Shown here: positions 4,186 through 21,483 of the stretch, piece by piece
Position numbering within the stretch: position 1 is the stretch's first letter
Layout of the letters: every line of letters begins with the position of its first letter
From: Chitinophagales bacterium
Lineage (GTDB): Bacteria > Bacteroidota > Bacteroidia > Chitinophagales > LD1
DNA: 64,000 bases
Assembly: GCA_046329495.1 (NCBI GenBank)
Contig: JAXLUO010000016.1
Location: 21,499-85,498, forward strand
Direction of reading: 5' to 3'
Notes under the pieces: generated by a model
The model's database searches: none
The model's input: only the letters and a program-made list of their open reading frames with translations
Told to the model about the DNA's origin: nothing
Made by a program: the position numbers and the translations under genes

Positions 4186-6531
4186 ATGAAAAAGACATTA
4201 TTCTTTCTGTTGTTGGTCAATACGGCTTTGGCCCAAACAGATTCCCTGCCCAACCGGCAGAAGAACCGCATGGATACTGCAAGTGCTGTAAGCGGTGTGG
4301 TAAGTTCCTACAGCTTACAGGAAGTAAGCATTACCACCATCCGCGCTACCACTAACACGCCCATGGCTTCGCAACTGATAAGCAAGCAGGAGTTAGAGAA
4401 AAATAATCTGGGGCAAGACCTTCCTTACCTGCTTGATAATACGGCCAGCGTAGTAACCACCAGCGATGCCGGTGCAGGGGTAGGCTATACAGGTATTCGC
4501 ATCCGCGGCAGCGATAATACCCGCGTGAACGTAACCATGAACGGTATACCCGTTAACGATGCCGAAAGCCAGGGCACGTATTGGGTGGATATACCCGATG
4601 TAGTTAGCAGCGCGCAAAACGTGCAGATACAACGCGGTGTAGGCACCAGCACCAACGGCCCCGGCGCTTTTGGCGGCACGGTAAGTGTACAAACCCAAAC
4701 CCCGGCGCAAAAAGCGTATGGTGCGGCAGGTATTTCATTAGGCTCCTTTAGCACCTTTAAGTATTCGGCACGCGGCAGTAGCGGCATGTTATGGAATCAT
4801 GTGTTTGTGGAAGGCGCTGCCAGTTGGATCACCAGCAAAGGTTACATTGACCGCGCAGCCAGTAACCTGCAATCGTATTTTGCTCAGGTTGGGTTCATGA
4901 GCGCCAATACGCTTATAAAGTTTGTGTACTTCGGTGGCCGCGAGAAAACCTACCAGGCCTGGAATGGTGTGCCGCAGGATTCGTTGGCTACCAACCGCAC
5001 CTTTAATGATTTAGGTACTGACTACGGACAACATTTACCGGCATATAAAAACCAAACCGATAATTACCGGCAACATTATATGCAGTTGTTGTATTCGCAA
5101 AACCTGGGCTACGGGTTGTTTTTAAACCTGGGAGGCTTTGCTACGCTCGGCAAAGGTTATTACGAAGAGTTTAAAGCCGGCACCGATATCACCAATTATT
5201 TTCCCGACCTCAATTCCGTAACTACCGACCTGGCACGACAAAAGTGGCTGGATAATATCTTTTACGGCGGCACCTACTCCCTGAATTACAAGCGTGGTAA
5301 TTGGGATGTTGCCCTCGGCGGCTTAATAGGCCAATACCGGGGCAAACACTATGGCAAAGTGGTATGGGCACAGGAAATTAAAGACCTGGATAAAAACCGC
5401 CATTACTACGATGGCCGTTCCATAAAAAACGATTTTAACGTATATGCCAAAGCCAGCTACGAACTGCTAAATAAGGTTGTATTTTTTGCGGATATGCAAT
5501 ACCGCTATGTAAGCCACACCACTTCGGGCATGGATAACAGCTTAACGCCTTACAACATTTCGCGTACCTGGCATTTCTTTAATCCTAAAGCAGGTGTTAC
5601 CTACAAAATAAATTACCTGAATCAGGTTTACGCCTCCTTTGCCCTGGGTAACCGCGAACCAAACCGCGACGACCTGATGGCCGCCACAACCACCCTGCCT
5701 GTTAAACCCGAAACCCTGCGCGATGTAGAAGCCGGTTACAAAGGCATAATTAATGTGGGTAACCACAACATTCAGTTGCAGCCTAATTTCTTTTTTATGC
5801 ACTACAAAAATCAGTTAGTGCTCACGGGTAGATTGAATGACGTAGGCAACCCTATTAAAGCCAACGTACCTGTTAGCTACCGCACGGGTATTGAGCTATG
5901 TGGAAGCTTTAACTTTTTCGCCCGGCAGAAAGGAACTAAAGCGGAAGATCTGAGAGATGTAATTACAGCCAACAGCACCCAAACGCTTGTGGTTACCGCT
6001 CAAAAAGTATTCGCGATAAACTTTGCCTTTACCTGGAGCATGAACAAGATCAAATCCTTCGACGAATACATTTATACCTACGATGAAAACTACAGTCCGG
6101 TTGATTCACTAACCATGGTTATTAACCACAAAAATACCGACATTTCCTTCTCTCCTTCTTACATCGCCTCGCTGGAACTGGTTGCTTACCCGGTTAAAGG
6201 TTTATCCATTAGTTTGATGAACAAAGCGGTAAGCAAGCAATACCTGGATAACACCAGCAATGAGGACCGTAAACTGAAAACATTCTATTACACCAACCTC
6301 AACATCAGTTACAGCCTACCCATCGGCCGCAACGACCGCGAGATCACCTTTAAGGTTTTGCTGAACAACATTTTTAACCGCTTATACGAAAGCAACGGCT
6401 ACACCTACAGCGAGCGTTACACGTACCCCGACGGCAATGGAGGACAAGTGCTGGATGGCCCCTACACCTATAACTACTATTACCCTCAGGCAGGCTTTAA
6501 CTGGCTTGCCGGCGTAAACATCCGCTTCTAA
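4186..6531 (+). CDS. TonB-dependent receptor, probably thiamine uptake
   Basis: 781 aa; signal peptide, plug motif IRIRG...RVNVTMNGIPVND, barrel ending in C-terminal F (GVNIRF). Substrate inferred from the TPP riboswitch. Confidence 0.9.
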   Translation: MKKTLFFLLLVNTALAQTDSLPNRQKNRMDTASAVSGVVSSYSLQEVSITTIRATTNTPMASQLISKQELEKNNLGQDLPYLLDNTASVVTTSDAGAGVGYTGIRIRGSDNTRVNVTMNGIPVNDAESQGTYWVDIPDVVSSAQNVQIQRGVGTSTNGPGAFGGTVSVQTQTPAQKAYGAAGISLGSFSTFKYSARGSSGMLWNHVFVEGAASWITSKGYIDRAASNLQSYFAQVGFMSANTLIKFVYFGGREKTYQAWNGVPQDSLATNRTFNDLGTDYGQHLPAYKNQTDNYRQHYMQLLYSQNLGYGLFLNLGGFATLGKGYYEEFKAGTDITNYFPDLNSVTTDLARQKWLDNIFYGGTYSLNYKRGNWDVALGGLIGQYRGKHYGKVVWAQEIKDLDKNRHYYDGRSIKNDFNVYAKASYELLNKVVFFADMQYRYVSHTTSGMDNSLTPYNISRTWHFFNPKAGVTYKINYLNQVYASFALGNREPNRDDLMAATTTLPVKPETLRDVEAGYKGIINVGNHNIQLQPNFFFMHYKNQLVLTGRLNDVGNPIKANVPVSYRTGIELCGSFNFFARQKGTKAEDLRDVITANSTQTLVVTAQKVFAINFAFTWSMNKIKSFDEYIYTYDENYSPVDSLTMVINHKNTDISFSPSYIASLELVAYPVKGLSISLMNKAVSKQYLDNTSNEDRKLKTFYYTNLNISYSLPIGRNDREITFKVLLNNIFNRLYESNGYTYSERYTYPDGNGGQVLDGPYTYNYYYPQAGFNWLAGVNIRF

Positions 6532-17183: not shown

Positions 17184-18401
17184 ATGAAAACGGTTGACAA
17201 CTACAATTTTGCCGGTAAACGCGCGCTTATCCGGGTAGACTTTAACGTGCCATTAGATAAAAAGACTTTTGCCGTTACCGATGATACCCGCATTAAAGCC
17301 GCTGTGCCTACCATCCAAAAGATATTGAAAGATGGGGGCAGTGTGGTGCTGATGAGTCACCTGGGCCGCCCTTTGAAGAAGCTGAAAGAAGATGGCACCG
17401 TTGATTACGAAAAACATTCCCTGAAACATATTGTTGCTCGTACCGCTGAACTGTTGGGCCGCGAAGTAAAGTTTGCAACCGACTGCGTTAGCGACGAAGC
17501 TTTTGCTTTATCTGCTGCTTTAAAACCCGGCGAAGTATTGCTGCTGGAAAACCTGCGTTTTTACAAGGAAGAAGAAAAAGGCGATGCCGGCTTTGCTGAA
17601 AAACTGAGCAAGCACGGCGATGTGTATGTAAACGATGCCTTCGGTACCGCACACCGCGCCCATGCTTCTACTACTATAGTGGCCAACTACTACAGCGCCG
17701 ATAACAAAATGTTCGGCTATGTGATGGCAAACGAAGTGGCCAGCGCCAATAAAGTGCTGAAGGGTGCCGAAAAACCTTTCACCGCCATACTGGGTGGTGC
17801 TAAGGTTAGCGACAAGATCCTCATCATCGAGAATCTTTTAAACGTTGCCGACAATATTTTGATCGGTGGCGGTATGGCCTATACTTTCTTTAAAGCACAG
17901 GGCGGCACCATCGGCAACTCGCTGGTGGAAGAGGATAAACTGGAACTGGCCCTGCAACTTATTGAAAAGGCCGAAGCCAAAGGTGTTAACCTGTTATTAC
18001 CGGTTGATAGTGTACTCGCCGATAAGTTTGATGCAGTCGCCAATACATCGGTAGCCGATAGCAACGCCATCCCCGATGGCTGGATGGGCTTAGATATTGC
18101 CGAAAAAGCCGTAAAAGATTTCAGCAACGTAATATTGAACAGCAAAACCATTTTGTGGAACGGCCCTATGGGTGTGTTCGAAATGGAGAAGTTCCAGAAG
18201 GGAACCGTAGCTATTGCCAACGCAGTAGCCGAAGCAACAGCCAAAGGTGCCTTTAGCCTGGTTGGCGGCGGCGATAGCGTTGCAGCCGTTAACCAATTCG
18301 GACTGGCCGATAAAGTTAGCTATGTAAGCACCGGCGGCGGCGCCATGCTGGAATACTTTGAAGGCAAAGAACTACCTGGCATTAAAGCCATCGAAGGCTG
18401 A
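17184..18401 (+). CDS. pgk: Phosphoglycerate kinase
   Basis: [56 protein letters not shown]. Confidence 0.99.
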
Positions 18402-18430: not shown

Positions 18431-18469
18431 GAAGGCCTGTTCTGCAAAATTAGCGGAACAGGCCTTTTT
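18431..18469 (+). terminator. Intrinsic terminator of pgk
   Basis: GAAGGCCTGTTCTGC...GCGGAACAGGCCTTTTT. Confidence 0.85.
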
Positions 18470-18620
18470 AACATTTGTAATTTGGAATATTGTTTCTTAT
18501 TTACTTATTTTTGTAGACAATGAGCAGTGTCAGCACAACAACGTCCTTTTACCGGACCGGCACCTTACTGTCGGGTAGAGAAGCTATGCCGGCAATAGCT
18601 CACATCAATATTTTTACAAT

Positions 18621-18775
18621 TTGTGCACTTGAAAATCAACTGCACAAATCTGCACAAATGCAAAAAAGCCTAAAGTATAAACAGGCCATTTTACCCCGTT
18701 TTAACACAAAAAACCATCATATGAAAAATTCTGTTACTTGTGCACAAGCTGAAAAGTGCACAAGCATGCACAAGT
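18621..18775. repeat. TGCACAA repeats: 10-bp-phased dimers plus a palindrome
   Basis: TGCACAA at 18641, 18651, 18741, 18757 and 18767; CTTGTGCACAAG palindrome at 18737-18748. Confidence 0.8.
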
Positions 18776-18853
18776 AGCGGTGGATAACGTACGGAAGAAT
18801 AGGAAGAGGATGACCTGCTTTTGTTGTCCGATCCCTTTAAGGCAGGGTACTGT

Positions 18854-19279
18854 GTGTAAAGAAGTGTAAAGTTCATCTTCGCTTTTATCCTGTAAATCCC
18901 CTTTCATCCAGTAAATCCTGGTTGAAAAGTGTAAAGTAGTGTAAAGTTGTCGCTGCTGTGAACAGTGAACCTTTTTAAGTGTAAAACAGTGTAAAGTTGA
19001 AAGGAGGAGCCACTTCCTATTTAATCAAAACAAAAGAAGGCGTCATCCTGTCCCGAGACCTCGGGATTGTTTCAGGATCTGGCTGTTCGGCTTTATTACT
19101 GCTACTGAGAAATCCTAAAAGATGGAAGTAACAATTGAAAAAGTGTAAAGAAGTGTAAAGTTCATCTTCGTTCTTATCCTGTAAATCCCCTTTCATCCAG
19201 TAAATCCTGGTTGAAAAGTGTAAAGAAGTGTAAAGTTTGAACCTGAGCAAATAGCAAAAGTGTAAAGAAGTGTAAAGTT
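18854..19279. repeat. Interspersed array of six 20-bp GTGTAAAG(A/T)AGTGTAAAGTT units
   Basis: Copies start at 18854, 18929, 18979, 19143, 19218 and 19260; includes a 95-bp duplication (18854-18948 vs 19143-19237, 3 mismatches). Confidence 0.95.
19042..19080. repeat. REP-like nested palindrome
   Basis: GTCATCCTG-[TCCCGAGACCTCGGGA]-TTGTTTCAGGATCT: an inner hairpin inside an ATCCTG/CAGGAT outer hairpin. Confidence 0.6.
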
Positions 19280-19455
19280 AGCTTCCTCTCAACAGGAGCA
19301 TCATTACCAGTGCTATGCACCACAACTGTAACTATGCAATCTTTTGTCTGATTTCTATTCTCTGCCTGCAAAACCGCGTCAATCATAAAAATCATATAAA
19401 ATCAGCGTTCTATAAAAGCACCACTCAAAACTCATCACTCCCAACTCATAACTAT

Positions 19456-21483
19456 TTACTGTTGTTGTGCCTCGCGCAAACGCATCTTAATGCTGTTTGC
19501 CATCGTGGTGTTGCCGGTCATTTCATAAGCAACACTCAGGTAATACAAGGCATTAGGGTTCGATGGATTTAAGGCCACAGAAGCATTCAGTGCTGCAATG
19601 CCCTTCTCCATCCGCGATGGATCTTTTTGCACGGTACTTAAGTAAGCCATGCCCAGGTTCATCCAGGCGGCATCGTTCTTTGAATATTTAACGCAGTAAG
19701 GCTCCAGGTAACCAATGGCCGCTTCAAAGTCCTGCTTCTTCAGGGCTTCCTGCCCCAGGTAATCGCCCTTGTCGGTTTTCTTTATCACACACGATAAAGG
19801 CACACCATCCGCATACACTACGTGTATGGCCTGCTCAGGCGGAAAACAGCCGCTCACCAGCAGGTCGCGATCCACAAACCGCGAGTAAAGTATCTCGTAA
19901 TCGGCCGGCACGTTGCTGCGGTTGCGGTAGCTTACATAACCGGTTAATACATCGGTAGTATCCTTAATAAAATAATGATACGTTGGCGCAATGGCATTGC
20001 TGTAAATAAGCGTTTTGCGTCCCGGTGTTTTCAGGTTCTCATGCTCCTTTAACCAATCGGCACATTGCTTCACCGAGTTCATGTAATAATCGGTTTCGTA
20101 GTTCTGGTAAGCGCCTTTAATACCGCCTACCACTTCGTTAAAGTACACATACTCGTTGGGGTGGTTGGCAAACATAAAGCGCGCAGGTAAGGCCATTAAT
20201 ATCAGTATGCCTGCGGCTACCAAATACTTACCAACCCCGCTAACACGGTTCAGGAAGTAGTTGAAGGCTAAGGCTGCCAGTATCACCAAACTTGGATACA
20301 CAAAAAAGAAGTGGCGCATGGTATCATACAACACCGATTTTTTGTAGATAACATACGCAATCGGGAACAGCAGGGTAAAGTAGATAAAGCCAAGCAGCAA
20401 CAGGTTCTTTTCCTTCATCGCCTTTGGTATCAATACCAGCGAAGCCGCAGCGCCTAACAGCGCAAACAGCGGACTGGATATTAAAAACCATTGTGGTATG
20501 TAATTCCAGGGTATAAGCGATATAAACTTGCCGTCCTCTCCTTGTTGGGCTGTAAAAATGTGCTTGCCGTCGAACAGTATGCGCATCGTAACAGGGAACT
20601 TCTCTGCTACACCTAAGGCTTCAAGCGGGTGACTGATAGGGCTTACCAAACCAAAAGGCCAGAAGATAAGCGCCAGCACATAACCTACACCTGCAGCCAG
20701 CAACACGTATTTAAAGCTCGGCCATATGTTCTCCTTAAAGCGCGAGAAGTTAAAGAGTTCGCTCCACCCTAAGCGGGCCAGCATAGCTAAACCGTAGAAC
20801 AGGAACAGGTAAGGTATCAGCAACAAACCACCGATACGTATACCCATCGCCATACCGATGCTGAGCCCAAGGCAGAGAGCGATCTTCCAGTTAGGCTTAG
20901 GTAACTGTTTAAGGAACTTGATGATGAACACGTACGACAGCAGGTAACCGGCCGCCATGGTAATATCCTTCGGGTTGTTCATGCTCTCGCCAAAAAAGCG
21001 TGGCGAGAAGATCATAAACAGCAAAGCCAGTAAGCCGGCTTGCCAGCCTGCCAGTTCCACAGCCACCAAACCGGCGCAAAGCATGGCGGTAAAACCAAAC
21101 ACCGAGTTCCAGGCGTGGCGTACATTCCATTCGTTGGCCGAGCTAAAGGTTTTGCTAAGTATGGCCGCGGTACCGTCGTAAAAGCCCCCGTAATAGCGCA
21201 TAAGGCTATCCGGACCTTTTTCCATGGTGCAGGTTTTATCGGCACCCAGGCTGGTGTAAAAGTTTACCACTCGGTGGCCGTATTCGCGGTGGAAGTTCTC
21301 ATCGCCCGATATACCGTACTGATGGCTAACCGCCAGCATGGTAATAAACAGCACGGCCGCCAGCCCCCAGAAAATGCGCTTGGCCCAAACTTCGGGGATA
21401 AGCGGTGTAAGGGTGATAACAGGTTTGCTTTCGGGCTTTTTGCTTTCAGGTTTTGCAGAAGGCTTGTTCTGATACTTGGCCAT
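19456..21483 (-). CDS. GT-C fold glycosyltransferase (ArnT/PMT_2-like) with C-terminal TPR
   Basis: 675 aa; acidic GDE motif after TM1, about 11 TM segments, PRFFG..MNNPKD and R.GG motifs, C-terminal TPR helices (AWMNLGMAY...ALYYLSVAY). Confidence 0.8.
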   Translation of the reverse strand: MAKYQNKPSAKPESKKPESKPVITLTPLIPEVWAKRIFWGLAAVLFITMLAVSHQYGISGDENFHREYGHRVVNFYTSLGADKTCTMEKGPDSLMRYYGGFYDGTAAILSKTFSSANEWNVRHAWNSVFGFTAMLCAGLVAVELAGWQAGLLALLFMIFSPRFFGESMNNPKDITMAAGYLLSYVFIIKFLKQLPKPNWKIALCLGLSIGMAMGIRIGGLLLIPYLFLFYGLAMLARLGWSELFNFSRFKENIWPSFKYVLLAAGVGYVLALIFWPFGLVSPISHPLEALGVAEKFPVTMRILFDGKHIFTAQQGEDGKFISLIPWNYIPQWFLISSPLFALLGAAASLVLIPKAMKEKNLLLLGFIYFTLLFPIAYVIYKKSVLYDTMRHFFFVYPSLVILAALAFNYFLNRVSGVGKYLVAAGILILMALPARFMFANHPNEYVYFNEVVGGIKGAYQNYETDYYMNSVKQCADWLKEHENLKTPGRKTLIYSNAIAPTYHYFIKDTTDVLTGYVSYRNRSNVPADYEILYSRFVDRDLLVSGCFPPEQAIHVVYADGVPLSCVIKKTDKGDYLGQEALKKQDFEAAIGYLEPYCVKYSKNDAAWMNLGMAYLSTVQKDPSRMEKGIAALNASVALNPSNPNALYYLSVAYEMTGNTTMANSIKMRLREAQQQ

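Follow-up and report, generated by a model that had tools for sequence, protein, structure and literature searches.

A family of mosaic noncoding repeats built on a helically spaced direct-dimer unit in two sister species of Chitinophagales

Introduction

In the intergenic mosaic elements of Neisseria (NIMEs), 20-bp dRS3 repeats flank RS elements of ~50–150 bp belonging to more than 100 families, dRS3 being an inverted repeat (ATTCCCN8GGGAAT) and the target of a phage recombinase, and arrays of this type are said to be unknown outside Neisseria (PMC1797815). Another kind of intergenic repeat, built of heptamers, has been described as the short tandemly repeated repetitive (STRR) sequences of cyanobacteria and as TAACTGA repeats in Beggiatoaceae, Cyanobacteria and some Bacteroidetes, with several heptamers per intergenic region reported for Gramella and Aequorivita (PMC4679880). 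Here we describe an array found beside the phosphoglycerate kinase gene (pgk) of a Chitinophagales bacterium, in which a constant dimeric repeat, the K unit, alternates with short cassettes. The analysed stretch ("the window", 64 kb, to which all positions without a contig name refer) is C8:21499-85498 of a metagenome-assembled genome (MAG) of 4.23 Mb in 36 contigs, labelled G000.

It is near-certain that the window array is a member of a mosaic noncoding repeat family restricted to one lineage, that is, G000 and a sister species (G024). As to what the family does, we see an even chance that its K units, and the L and R cores found in the same islands (see below), are docking sites of a sequence-specific DNA-binding protein in a NIME-like family. 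The same architecture has been arrived at here in an unrelated phylum, from different parts and with a direct-repeat unit whose copies lie whole helical turns apart.

Results and Discussion

The array at the pgk locus

Between positions 18854 and 19279 there are six co-oriented copies of a dimer with the consensus GTGTAAAG-WA-GTGTAAAG-TT. The pattern GTGTAAAGWAGTGTAAAGTT matches six times, always on the + strand (starts 18854, 18929, 18979 with two mismatches, 19143, 19218 and 19260), and none of 100 dinucleotide-preserving shuffles gave a match. A first-pass annotation, made from the letters of the stretch, had listed these six dimers with spacers of 55, 30, 144, 55 and 22 nt, and all of them were found. 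It had also placed other motifs and a hairpin in the spacers, which is borne out: ATCCTGTAAATCC...ATCCAGTAAATCC is present twice and GTGAACAGTGAAC once, ATCCTG/ATCCAG motifs occur as well, and a hairpin at ~19045-19078 has a DNA fold of −10.6 kcal/mol (z −2.7). The setting was likewise read correctly as gene-poor DNA between convergent genes, PGK on the + strand and a PMT_2/TPR membrane protein on the − strand. No tyrosine recombinase is present in the 64-kb window (cas genes and transposases were not screened there).

The array bears the mark of an internal duplication of unit-cassette-unit, 95 nt long, in which 18854-18948 and 19143-19237 are 97% identical and the edges coincide exactly with the outer edges of K units. 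When the island was compared by BLAST with its own genome, repeated DNA extended over ~18600-19455, and the modules recognized within it are listed in Table 1.

K units and cassettes across the genome

With three or fewer mismatches allowed, the 20-mer has 110 copies at 43 loci of G000, the commonest form being GTGTAAAGGAGTGTAAAGTT. A position count over these copies gives a unit of 25 nt, AAAAA-GTGTAAAG-RA-GTGTAAAG-TT (as an oligonucleotide sequence, AAAAAGTGTAAAGGAGTGTAAAGTT), with 1.2–2.0 bits per position from −4 to +19 (0.9 at the variable base R) and sharp edges, information falling to 0.56 bits at −5 and to about 0 to 0.3 beyond. K is a head-to-tail direct dimer with a 10-nt period and no dyad symmetry; its copies share one orientation within each locus, and none of the 110 host units has an inverted K-like 8-mer within 60 nt.

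The spacers between K units, 21–350 nt long, are found again at other loci, and those of 21–225 nt fall into families (T, N, C, H1, H2, V and short). T cassettes measure 53–55 or 42–43 nt and carry ATCCTG each 9–10 nt, with ~18 of the 53–55-nt type genome-wide; N cassettes consist of three to four GTGAACn heptads and C cassettes (56–67 nt) of five TCTGnTn heptads. Further types include two hairpin cassettes, TGTAAC/TGTAAAC triplets, AATCCT repeats and nine short spacers of 21–24 nt. Folding is weak in the K-T-K combination (−6.4 kcal/mol, with the K units themselves unpaired), and hairpins are confined to L, R and the H cassettes. A CRISPR array was rejected on the spacers, which are neither uniform nor unique (cas genes were not screened), and an integron cassette array on the absence of dyad symmetry in K and of either of the two tyrosine recombinases of G000 near any array.

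Helical phasing

The distances between the starts of successive K units cluster at 41–44, 62–63, 73–77, 83–87, 96–99 and 114–117 nt, corresponding to 4, 6, 7, 8, 9 and 11 turns of ~10.6 bp, and half-turn values are nearly empty. The Rayleigh statistic peaks at a period of 10.5–10.75 with a phase of ~0 in both species (R 0.74–0.77 in G000, n = 51; 0.64–0.66 in G024, n = 58), and when each distinct length is counted only once the p value is ~0.003–0.008. Within the window, skipping the degenerate unit 3, the distances of 75, 214, 75 and 42 nt amount to 7.0, 20.0, 7.0 and 3.9 turns of 10.7 bp.

Islands and their L and R cores

The K arrays belong to larger islands that contain two more conserved blocks. 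L occurs in 31 copies genome-wide, ATTTGTGCAC-N10-CTGCACAAAT-[C/G]TGCACAAAT, and R in ~45 copies, CGTTTTAACACAAAAA...ACTTGTGCAC-N10-TTGCACAAGC-ATGCACAAG[C/T]-AG(n)TGT[G/T]GATAAC. The two are 41-mer paralogues in direct orientation whose main difference is AAAT vs AAGC in each site, and the inverted arm changes in step (ATTT vs CTT), each core keeping its own 9-mer as one inverted and two direct copies. Conservation of R ends directly after GATAAC. At all of the 54 loci with L, R or K marks the modules are co-oriented, following the order (promoter/BoxA-like module) - L - (cassettes) - R - (cassettes), and in the window the K array lies downstream of the R core. In total there are ~50 intergenic islands, covering at least 42 kb or ~1% of the genome. 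The gap from L to R is 97–98 nt in seven of eight G000 copies, and every L-to-R interval stays below about 0.7 kb.

The R cores also hold most of the perfect DnaA boxes (TGTGGATAA) of the genome, 31 of 50 lying at R-core 3' ends, which leaves 19 elsewhere, while chance alone predicts ~32 for the entire genome. A weaker TGTTGATAA is found in about a third of the R copies, and the window copy (18780-18788) reads GGTGGATAA.

Constraint was evaluated on an alignment of 17 minimal L-R units taken from G000 and G024. The L block has a mean pairwise identity of 0.81 and the R block one of 0.89, vs 0.55 in the middle and 0.31–0.37 in the flanks. The L hairpin folds at −11.8 kcal/mol (z −3.4). The paired positions of the L and R hairpins are invariant across the aligned units, which gives no covariation for an RNA structure, and no consensus structure was found in the variable middle. 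Given the block-wise identity, the invariant hairpin pairs and the nearly absent fold of K-T-K, the pattern of conservation in L, R and K points to sequence-specific recognition of the primary sequence, and neither to recent copying nor to a conserved RNA fold.

Restriction to one lineage and turnover between sister species

The K dimer was looked for in 67 genomes of the family and is abundant in G000 (108 copies) and G024 (123) alone, four others having one hit each with one mismatch. The R pattern was found in G000 and in one of 24 same-genus genomes (again G024), and the joint L/R pattern (two or fewer mismatches), searched in 301 Chitinophagales genomes of 129 genera, gave the two species and one chance-level hit. 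An exact scan for the K unit in ~185,000 species representatives returned G024 plus one lone copy in a Sphingobacteriales MAG. G024 is a Chitinophagales MAG from a membrane bioreactor and a close sister of G000, with the product of a flanking gene 97% identical.

We compared 14 islands of G024, including that of the pgk locus, with G000. At least eight sit at the same chromosomal site in G000 and about four are at synteny or contig breaks; at one locus (L035) only one flank could be matched, beside the end of contig C5. Seven orthologous islands occupy the same site and differ by whole K-bounded cassettes. At the pgk locus G000 has L R K-T-K-N-K-H2-K-T-K-s-K (s, short cassette) and G024 has L K-s-K-s-K-C-K, without R; at C23:60.8k the strings are L R K-T-K-(T+H2)-K-T-K and L R K-T-K, respectively; and at C34:27.6k the two genomes have only K-C66-K in common. 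Since the sites are shared and the module strings differ, the arrays predate the species split and have been remodelled in place. With 110 copies at 43 loci and cassette differences between the two species, the motif is clearly neither unique to this site nor invariant, the grounds on which the first-pass annotation would have given up its reading. No strain-level copies of the pgk locus are on record (exact-protein look-up), and in the next relative, G012, synteny at pgk is lost.

That the whole family might be an assembly artefact of a repeat-rich MAG has a negligible probability in our judgement. Several copies do abut contig ends (e.g., C5:14-51 and C18:34); however, the same units are present in the independent assembly of G024, for which the opera_contig names suggest a different pipeline, the orthologous flanks align, and the differences between arrays at separate loci are ordered and can be interpreted.

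The islands at breaks include two cases of inversion. A segment at ~C10:55.8-73.2 kb is inverted relative to G024 and is bounded in G000 by two inverted islands, and a ~15-kb inversion on C1 has a junction with an L-R unit in G024 only. At one end of the latter (C1:30305-30685 in G000 vs L027:1900-2080 in G024) G000 has a small GxxExxY-type gene in place of the L-R unit, which in G024 lies upstream of a conserved 2.1-kb gene. The family marks inversion breakpoints and is remodelled faster than the surrounding genes, which makes it both a practical way to follow genome dynamics among wastewater Chitinophagales strains and a probable reason for the fragmentation of MAGs.

Comparison with described systems

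The first-pass annotation recognized no named element with this layout; the NIME arrays of Neisseria provide a close architectural analogue (PMC1797815). In both, a constant unit of ~20 nt alternates with many recurrent families of short cassettes, the arrays are intergenic and at syntenic sites, the number of units varies between close relatives, each system is confined to one lineage, and the repeats are suspected substrates of recombination and binding sites of a recombinase or other protein. In contrast to dRS3, an inverted repeat, K is a head-to-tail dimer with an A5 tract. The K arrays are strictly co-oriented and helically phased, their cassettes are themselves short tandem repeats, and their islands have L/R cores and, in some cases, an rRNA-like promoter; in sequence they show no similarity to NIMEs, and no phage recombinase is linked to K, a candidate not having been found in G000. 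The K arrays work like NIMEs and yet are not NIMEs, because they lack the inverted-repeat nature that defines dRS3.

Similar considerations apply to other modular intergenic repeats, such as the pneumococcal BOX elements (boxA-boxB(n)-boxC) and the bacterial interspersed mosaic elements (BIMEs) of E. coli, composed of repetitive extragenic palindromes (REPs, or palindromic units, PU) with L, S, l and r motifs. These share with our islands the fixed end modules, the variable number of internal modules and the presence at dozens of loci, but it is hairpins or palindromes that define their modules, and REPs go together with RAYT transposases, while K-T-K has no significant fold and no RAYT link. 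The N cassettes (GTGAACn x3–4) and C cassettes (TCTGnTn x5) resemble the heptamer repeats in being short intergenic heptad arrays, with several different heptamers in one intergenic region as in Gramella and Aequorivita. The heptads of the K islands differ in being fixed-length cassettes between K units and in having other motifs; moreover, the known arrays are free-standing next to start codons, and the K unit itself has a 10-nt period.

With iterons and incA-type arrays the K arrays have in common short direct repeats at helical phase, which in iterons bind one protein cooperatively. Here, on the contrary, the arrays are at 43 chromosomal loci, without a rep gene and with housekeeping flanks.

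The K motif outside the lineage

The exact 23-mer is present in two related phage contigs of IMG/VR (L048 and L049), where eight exact and three near copies of GTGTAAAG, direct and inverted, are packed within 184 nt (L048:10666-10849, L049 ~6030-6215). The cluster is located between an Erf recombinase gene and helicase-methylase and primase genes, immediately upstream of a TATCTTTG −7 box with GTTCTTTAAA after it. It has the look of an origin or operator in which the word and the 10-bp spacing of the host K are employed. The likeness covers the same 8-mer, the 10-bp dimer and the AAA and TT flanks, all in a replication module; the phage, however, mixes direct and inverted copies, unlike the host units, which have no inverted partner within 60 nt. 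A second match comes from a 1.1-kb metagenome contig of an AT-rich organism (Ga0209541_10345989, L077), which at 120-215 has a K unit and an inverted TGTAAAG copy, 40 nt upstream of a gene for a transposase with helix-turn-helix (HTH) and rve domains (IS481/IS3-like), and this K-like unit may be part of the end of an insertion sequence (IS). By analogy, these cases show that the same word and spacing would serve as protein sites elsewhere, which does not by itself name the binder in G000.

The phage cluster, the direct 8-mers at 10-bp phase and the DnaA-box-like 9-mer at the R end are what one would expect if the locus were a replication origin or partition site of plasmid or phage type, with true iterons. 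The genome-wide distribution effectively refutes this reading, which we consider extremely improbable: arrays of this kind stand at 43 chromosomal loci, with no rep or par gene beside them, the flanks are housekeeping genes in synteny with the sister species, and homologues of the phage proteins are absent from the genome. When G000 was searched with the proteins of the phage replication module and with the metagenomic rve transposase, only collagen-like low-complexity hits and an unrelated IS3 element came up.

Genomic context and the search for a trans-acting enzyme

Of 51 islands, 21 lie between convergent genes, an enrichment over the 17.8% that such regions make up of all gene pairs (p = 1e-4), and there is no depletion in divergent regions. 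In tandem contexts their orientation is independent of that of the genes (11 co-directional vs 10 opposed). The top strand of the element is the C-rich strand at 26 of 38 strong-skew loci, a tendency that is weak and inconsistent along large contigs.

This convergent enrichment is one of several features that would suit a purely selfish non-autonomous element, similar to miniature inverted-repeat (MITE) or palindrome-associated (PATE) transposable elements, with L...R and K-bounded cassettes moved in trans and conserved for the needs of the enzyme. There are ~50 dispersed copies in a single lineage, the ends are defined and homology halts after GATAAC, the cores with one inverted and two direct sites resemble transposase-binding ends, the dRS3 of NIMEs is a phage recombinase target (PMC1797815), and a K-like unit with its inverted copy precedes the transposase gene of the unrelated metagenome contig. 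We nonetheless regard this explanation as unlikely. The L-to-R intervals leave no room for a gene and there is no autonomous copy; L and R are direct, and target-site duplications were not seen; none of the 14 G024 islands compared shows a clean filled-vs-empty difference with G000; and a middle that is scrambled while L and R stay invariant speaks for constraint over the long term and not for recent copying. A MITE or DDE transposon as such was rejected on the direct orientation of L and R and the lack of a duplicated flank in aligned copies.

The candidate enzymes fare no better. All eight genus genomes tested have RAYT/Y1 genes, also those free of the repeats, and the flanks of the Y1_Tnp genes hold no K dimer, TGCACAA core or other island structure, only scattered single hits to short motifs. 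G000 has just two Phage_integrase genes, neither near an array and one of them common to all relatives, which speaks against an integron or a tyrosine recombinase dedicated to the islands. Of multi-copy IS a single one was found, a 1291-bp IS3-family element with three near-identical copies and one at 90% (Table 1); it has ends beginning TGTAAGC... without the island motifs and 4-bp target duplications, and is unrelated to the islands. With no dedicated enzyme found, gain, loss and exchange of cassettes are most simply attributed to slippage and RecA-type recombination between the 25-nt units, a specific recombinase being a less likely possibility.

Promoter-like modules and signs of transcription

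A promoter-like module (P) was found in 14 copies, 12 of which are 130–310 nt upstream of L or K and co-oriented with them. It reads ...AACGTCTTTTATTATATCTT(T/C)(G/A)...GTTCCTTGACATAC..., with a −7 box TATCTT(T/C)(G/A), and its −7 and downstream boxes closely match the rRNA promoters (TATCTTTG) and leader boxes (GTTCTTTAAAACAC, GTTCTTTGAAATAC) of the same genome. Ahead of the single rRNA operon there are three tandem promoters (C7:81800-82470), in each of which GTTCT(T/C)T(A)AA comes after a TA(T/C)CTTTG box, and an extra GTTCTTTGAAATAC box ~110 nt before the 16S gene. Most islands, that of the window among them, have no P module. The window island is faced at 18481-18513 by TTTG-N21-TATTTTTG, which shares the −33/−7 layout of the rRNA promoters (TTTG-N21-TATCTTTG), is kept in G024 and has no gene downstream to serve, the next one being convergent. 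Judging from these motifs, transcription of islands from an upstream putative promoter is plausible. One P module stands alone at C6:22709 (an rRNA-like promoter plus GTTCTTTGACATAC, without L, K or R) and is followed by a C9 run and an open reading frame (ORF) of 126 aa with no Pfam match.

From such modules it could be supposed that the islands act as RNA, with an rRNA-type promoter and BoxA antitermination producing a long noncoding RNA or a precursor of several small RNAs on which K units and cassette motifs would be sites of protein binding or of processing. The placement and orientation of the 12 P modules, the promoter-like site in the window, and the strict co-orientation of all modules regardless of the flanking genes are in its favor. 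Against it, helical phasing of K units would be meaningless for RNA; there is no covarying structure and K-T-K is essentially unstructured; no credible Rfam family was found in the window island or in four other islands; perfect Bacteroidota −7 boxes are not enriched upstream of L (9 of 31 vs ~6 expected); and most islands lack the module. We therefore hold an RNA-level role to be rather unlikely. A scan for sigma-70 promoters and terminators gave chance-level results. The reverse strand of the T cassette has CAGGATG three times, and a CsrB-like sponge was discarded, there being no CsrA gene in eight genus genomes to read these motifs. An 85-aa ORF across L-R (18520-18777) was also rejected as a gene, since it lacks conservation and the majority of copies contain stops in every frame.

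A docking model and its weak points

Our main reason for preferring a docking role at the DNA level is the phasing, which is of consequence to proteins that sit on duplex DNA but not to RNA. K units and the three-site L/R cores would be recognized by a DNA-binding protein loading along one face of the helix, and recombination or slippage between K units would let the arrays grow, shrink and swap cassettes, with homologous recombination of the host as a more probable agent than a dedicated recombinase. The family could be purely selfish or could serve the cell, for instance in chromosome architecture, as recombination hotspots or in the titration of a factor. The regularity of the spacing makes the long-standing question of array function directly testable.

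Both proposals of the first-pass annotation survive in part. Phased binding sites are supported by the period of ~10.5–10.75 bp in two species, but these are not the iterons of a local replicon, given 43 loci and no rep gene; an accretion hotspot agrees with recurrent cassettes and whole-cassette differences in the sister, but the recombinase or transposase that it assumed was not found. Nor was any neighbouring gene family enriched.

This last result is among several that weigh against docking sites. No binding protein for the K units was identified. An rRNA-like promoter and a BoxA-like box precede 12 islands, and strict co-orientation is equally compatible with a role in RNA. The phasing statistic rests on ~6–8 independent classes of cassette length, and 42, 63 and 84 are also multiples of 7, so part of the signal possibly derives from heptad-built cassettes, although the commonest distance class of G000 (74–75 nt, 19 cases) fits 10.6 and not 7. 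The third K unit of the window is out of phase, and the phage and IS matches to K may reflect convergence on a simple AT-rich word.

A more ambitious proposal, to which we attach a low probability, is that of a domesticated chromosome-wide system in which a DNA-binding protein specific to the lineage is loaded at ~50 phased docking platforms, a part of them equipped with an rRNA-strength promoter and an antiterminator. They could serve nucleoid organization or be decoys titrating a phage or plasmid initiator of GTGTAAAG iterons, and the concentration of perfect DnaA boxes at R ends (31 of 50) could be likened to such titration. Such a system, if real, would be the chromosomal equivalent, so far undescribed, of titration by iterons or of the datA type.

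Features of the pgk island and neighbouring sequences

The inverted repeat that limits the island on its left has 17-nt arms (88% complementary) followed by TTTTT and is kept in G024. At the other side, the tail at 19280-19455 reaches the stop codon of the convergent gene, and its heptad remnant has a longer heptad tract as its aligned counterpart in G024.

Table 1. Modules and flanking features of the pgk island in window coordinates, followed by the IS3-family copies of G000 (contig coordinates).
Feature	Position	Strand	Remarks
Phosphoglycerate kinase, upstream flank, outside the element	17184..18401	+	Pfam PGK, E = 5.7e-154
Terminator-like hairpin and T run after pgk, left limit of the noncoding island	18432..18472	+	inverted repeat I1
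Bacteroidota-type promoter-like site TTTG-N21-TATTTTTG, facing the island	18481..18513	+	read from sequence; putative function
L core: ACATCAATATTTTTACA-ATTTGTGCAC-N10-CTGCACAAAT-CTGCACAAAT-G	18601..18660	+	one inverted and two direct TGCACAAAT sites
Middle segment, L to R	18661..18697	+	length constant, sequence variable
R core: CGTTTTAACACAAAAA...TCTGTT-ACTTGTGCAC-N10-GTGCACAAGC-ATGCACAAGT-AGCG-GTGGATAAC	18698..18788	+	L paralogue, DnaA-box-like 9-mer end
Linker, R to first K unit	18789..18853	+	low copy number (coverage profile)
K unit 1 (GTGTAAAGAAGTGTAAAGTT)	18854..18873	+	
T cassette, 55 nt	18874..18928	+	ATCCTG/ATCCAG each 9-10 nt
K unit 2	18929..18948	+	
N cassette, 30 nt	18949..18978	+	short form of the GTGAACn heptad module
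K unit 3, degenerate	18979..18998	+	two mismatches; sole window unit off helical phase
H2 cassette, 144 nt, with hairpin GTCATCCTGTCCCGAGACCTCGGGATTGTTTCAGGATC	18999..19142	+	two related 136-nt cassettes at other loci
K unit 4	19143..19162	+	
T cassette, copy of 18874-18928	19163..19217	+	repeat family D2, 97% over 95 nt including both K units
K unit 5	19218..19237	+	
Short cassette, 22 nt	19238..19259	+	nine 21-24-nt spacers genome-wide
K unit 6	19260..19279	+	
Tail of low-copy modules	19280..19455	+	TCTGnTn heptad remnant, AATCAT(A/G) 9-mers, ACTCA repeats
PMT_2/TPR membrane protein, downstream, convergent, outside the element	19456..21483	-	G024 orthologue 97% identical
IS3-family element, 1291 bp	C31:61038-62328, C1:488508-489798, C2:62344-63630, C1:212341-213604		

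Two further observations concern intergenic DNA of these genomes. A GC-rich, structured-looking segment of ~90 nt (C1:45770-45860 in G000, L027:1500-1600 in G024) is kept in the sister species amid diverged intergenic DNA, and from its sequence may be an unannotated small RNA. Just beyond the 3' end of the PMT_2/TPR gene the window has low-complexity (G)AGT(G/T)ATGAGT / ACTCA repeats (19419-19450), and G012, which is without the K/L/R family, has a much longer ACTCA-type repeat at the 3' end of the same gene (L020:2750-2880).

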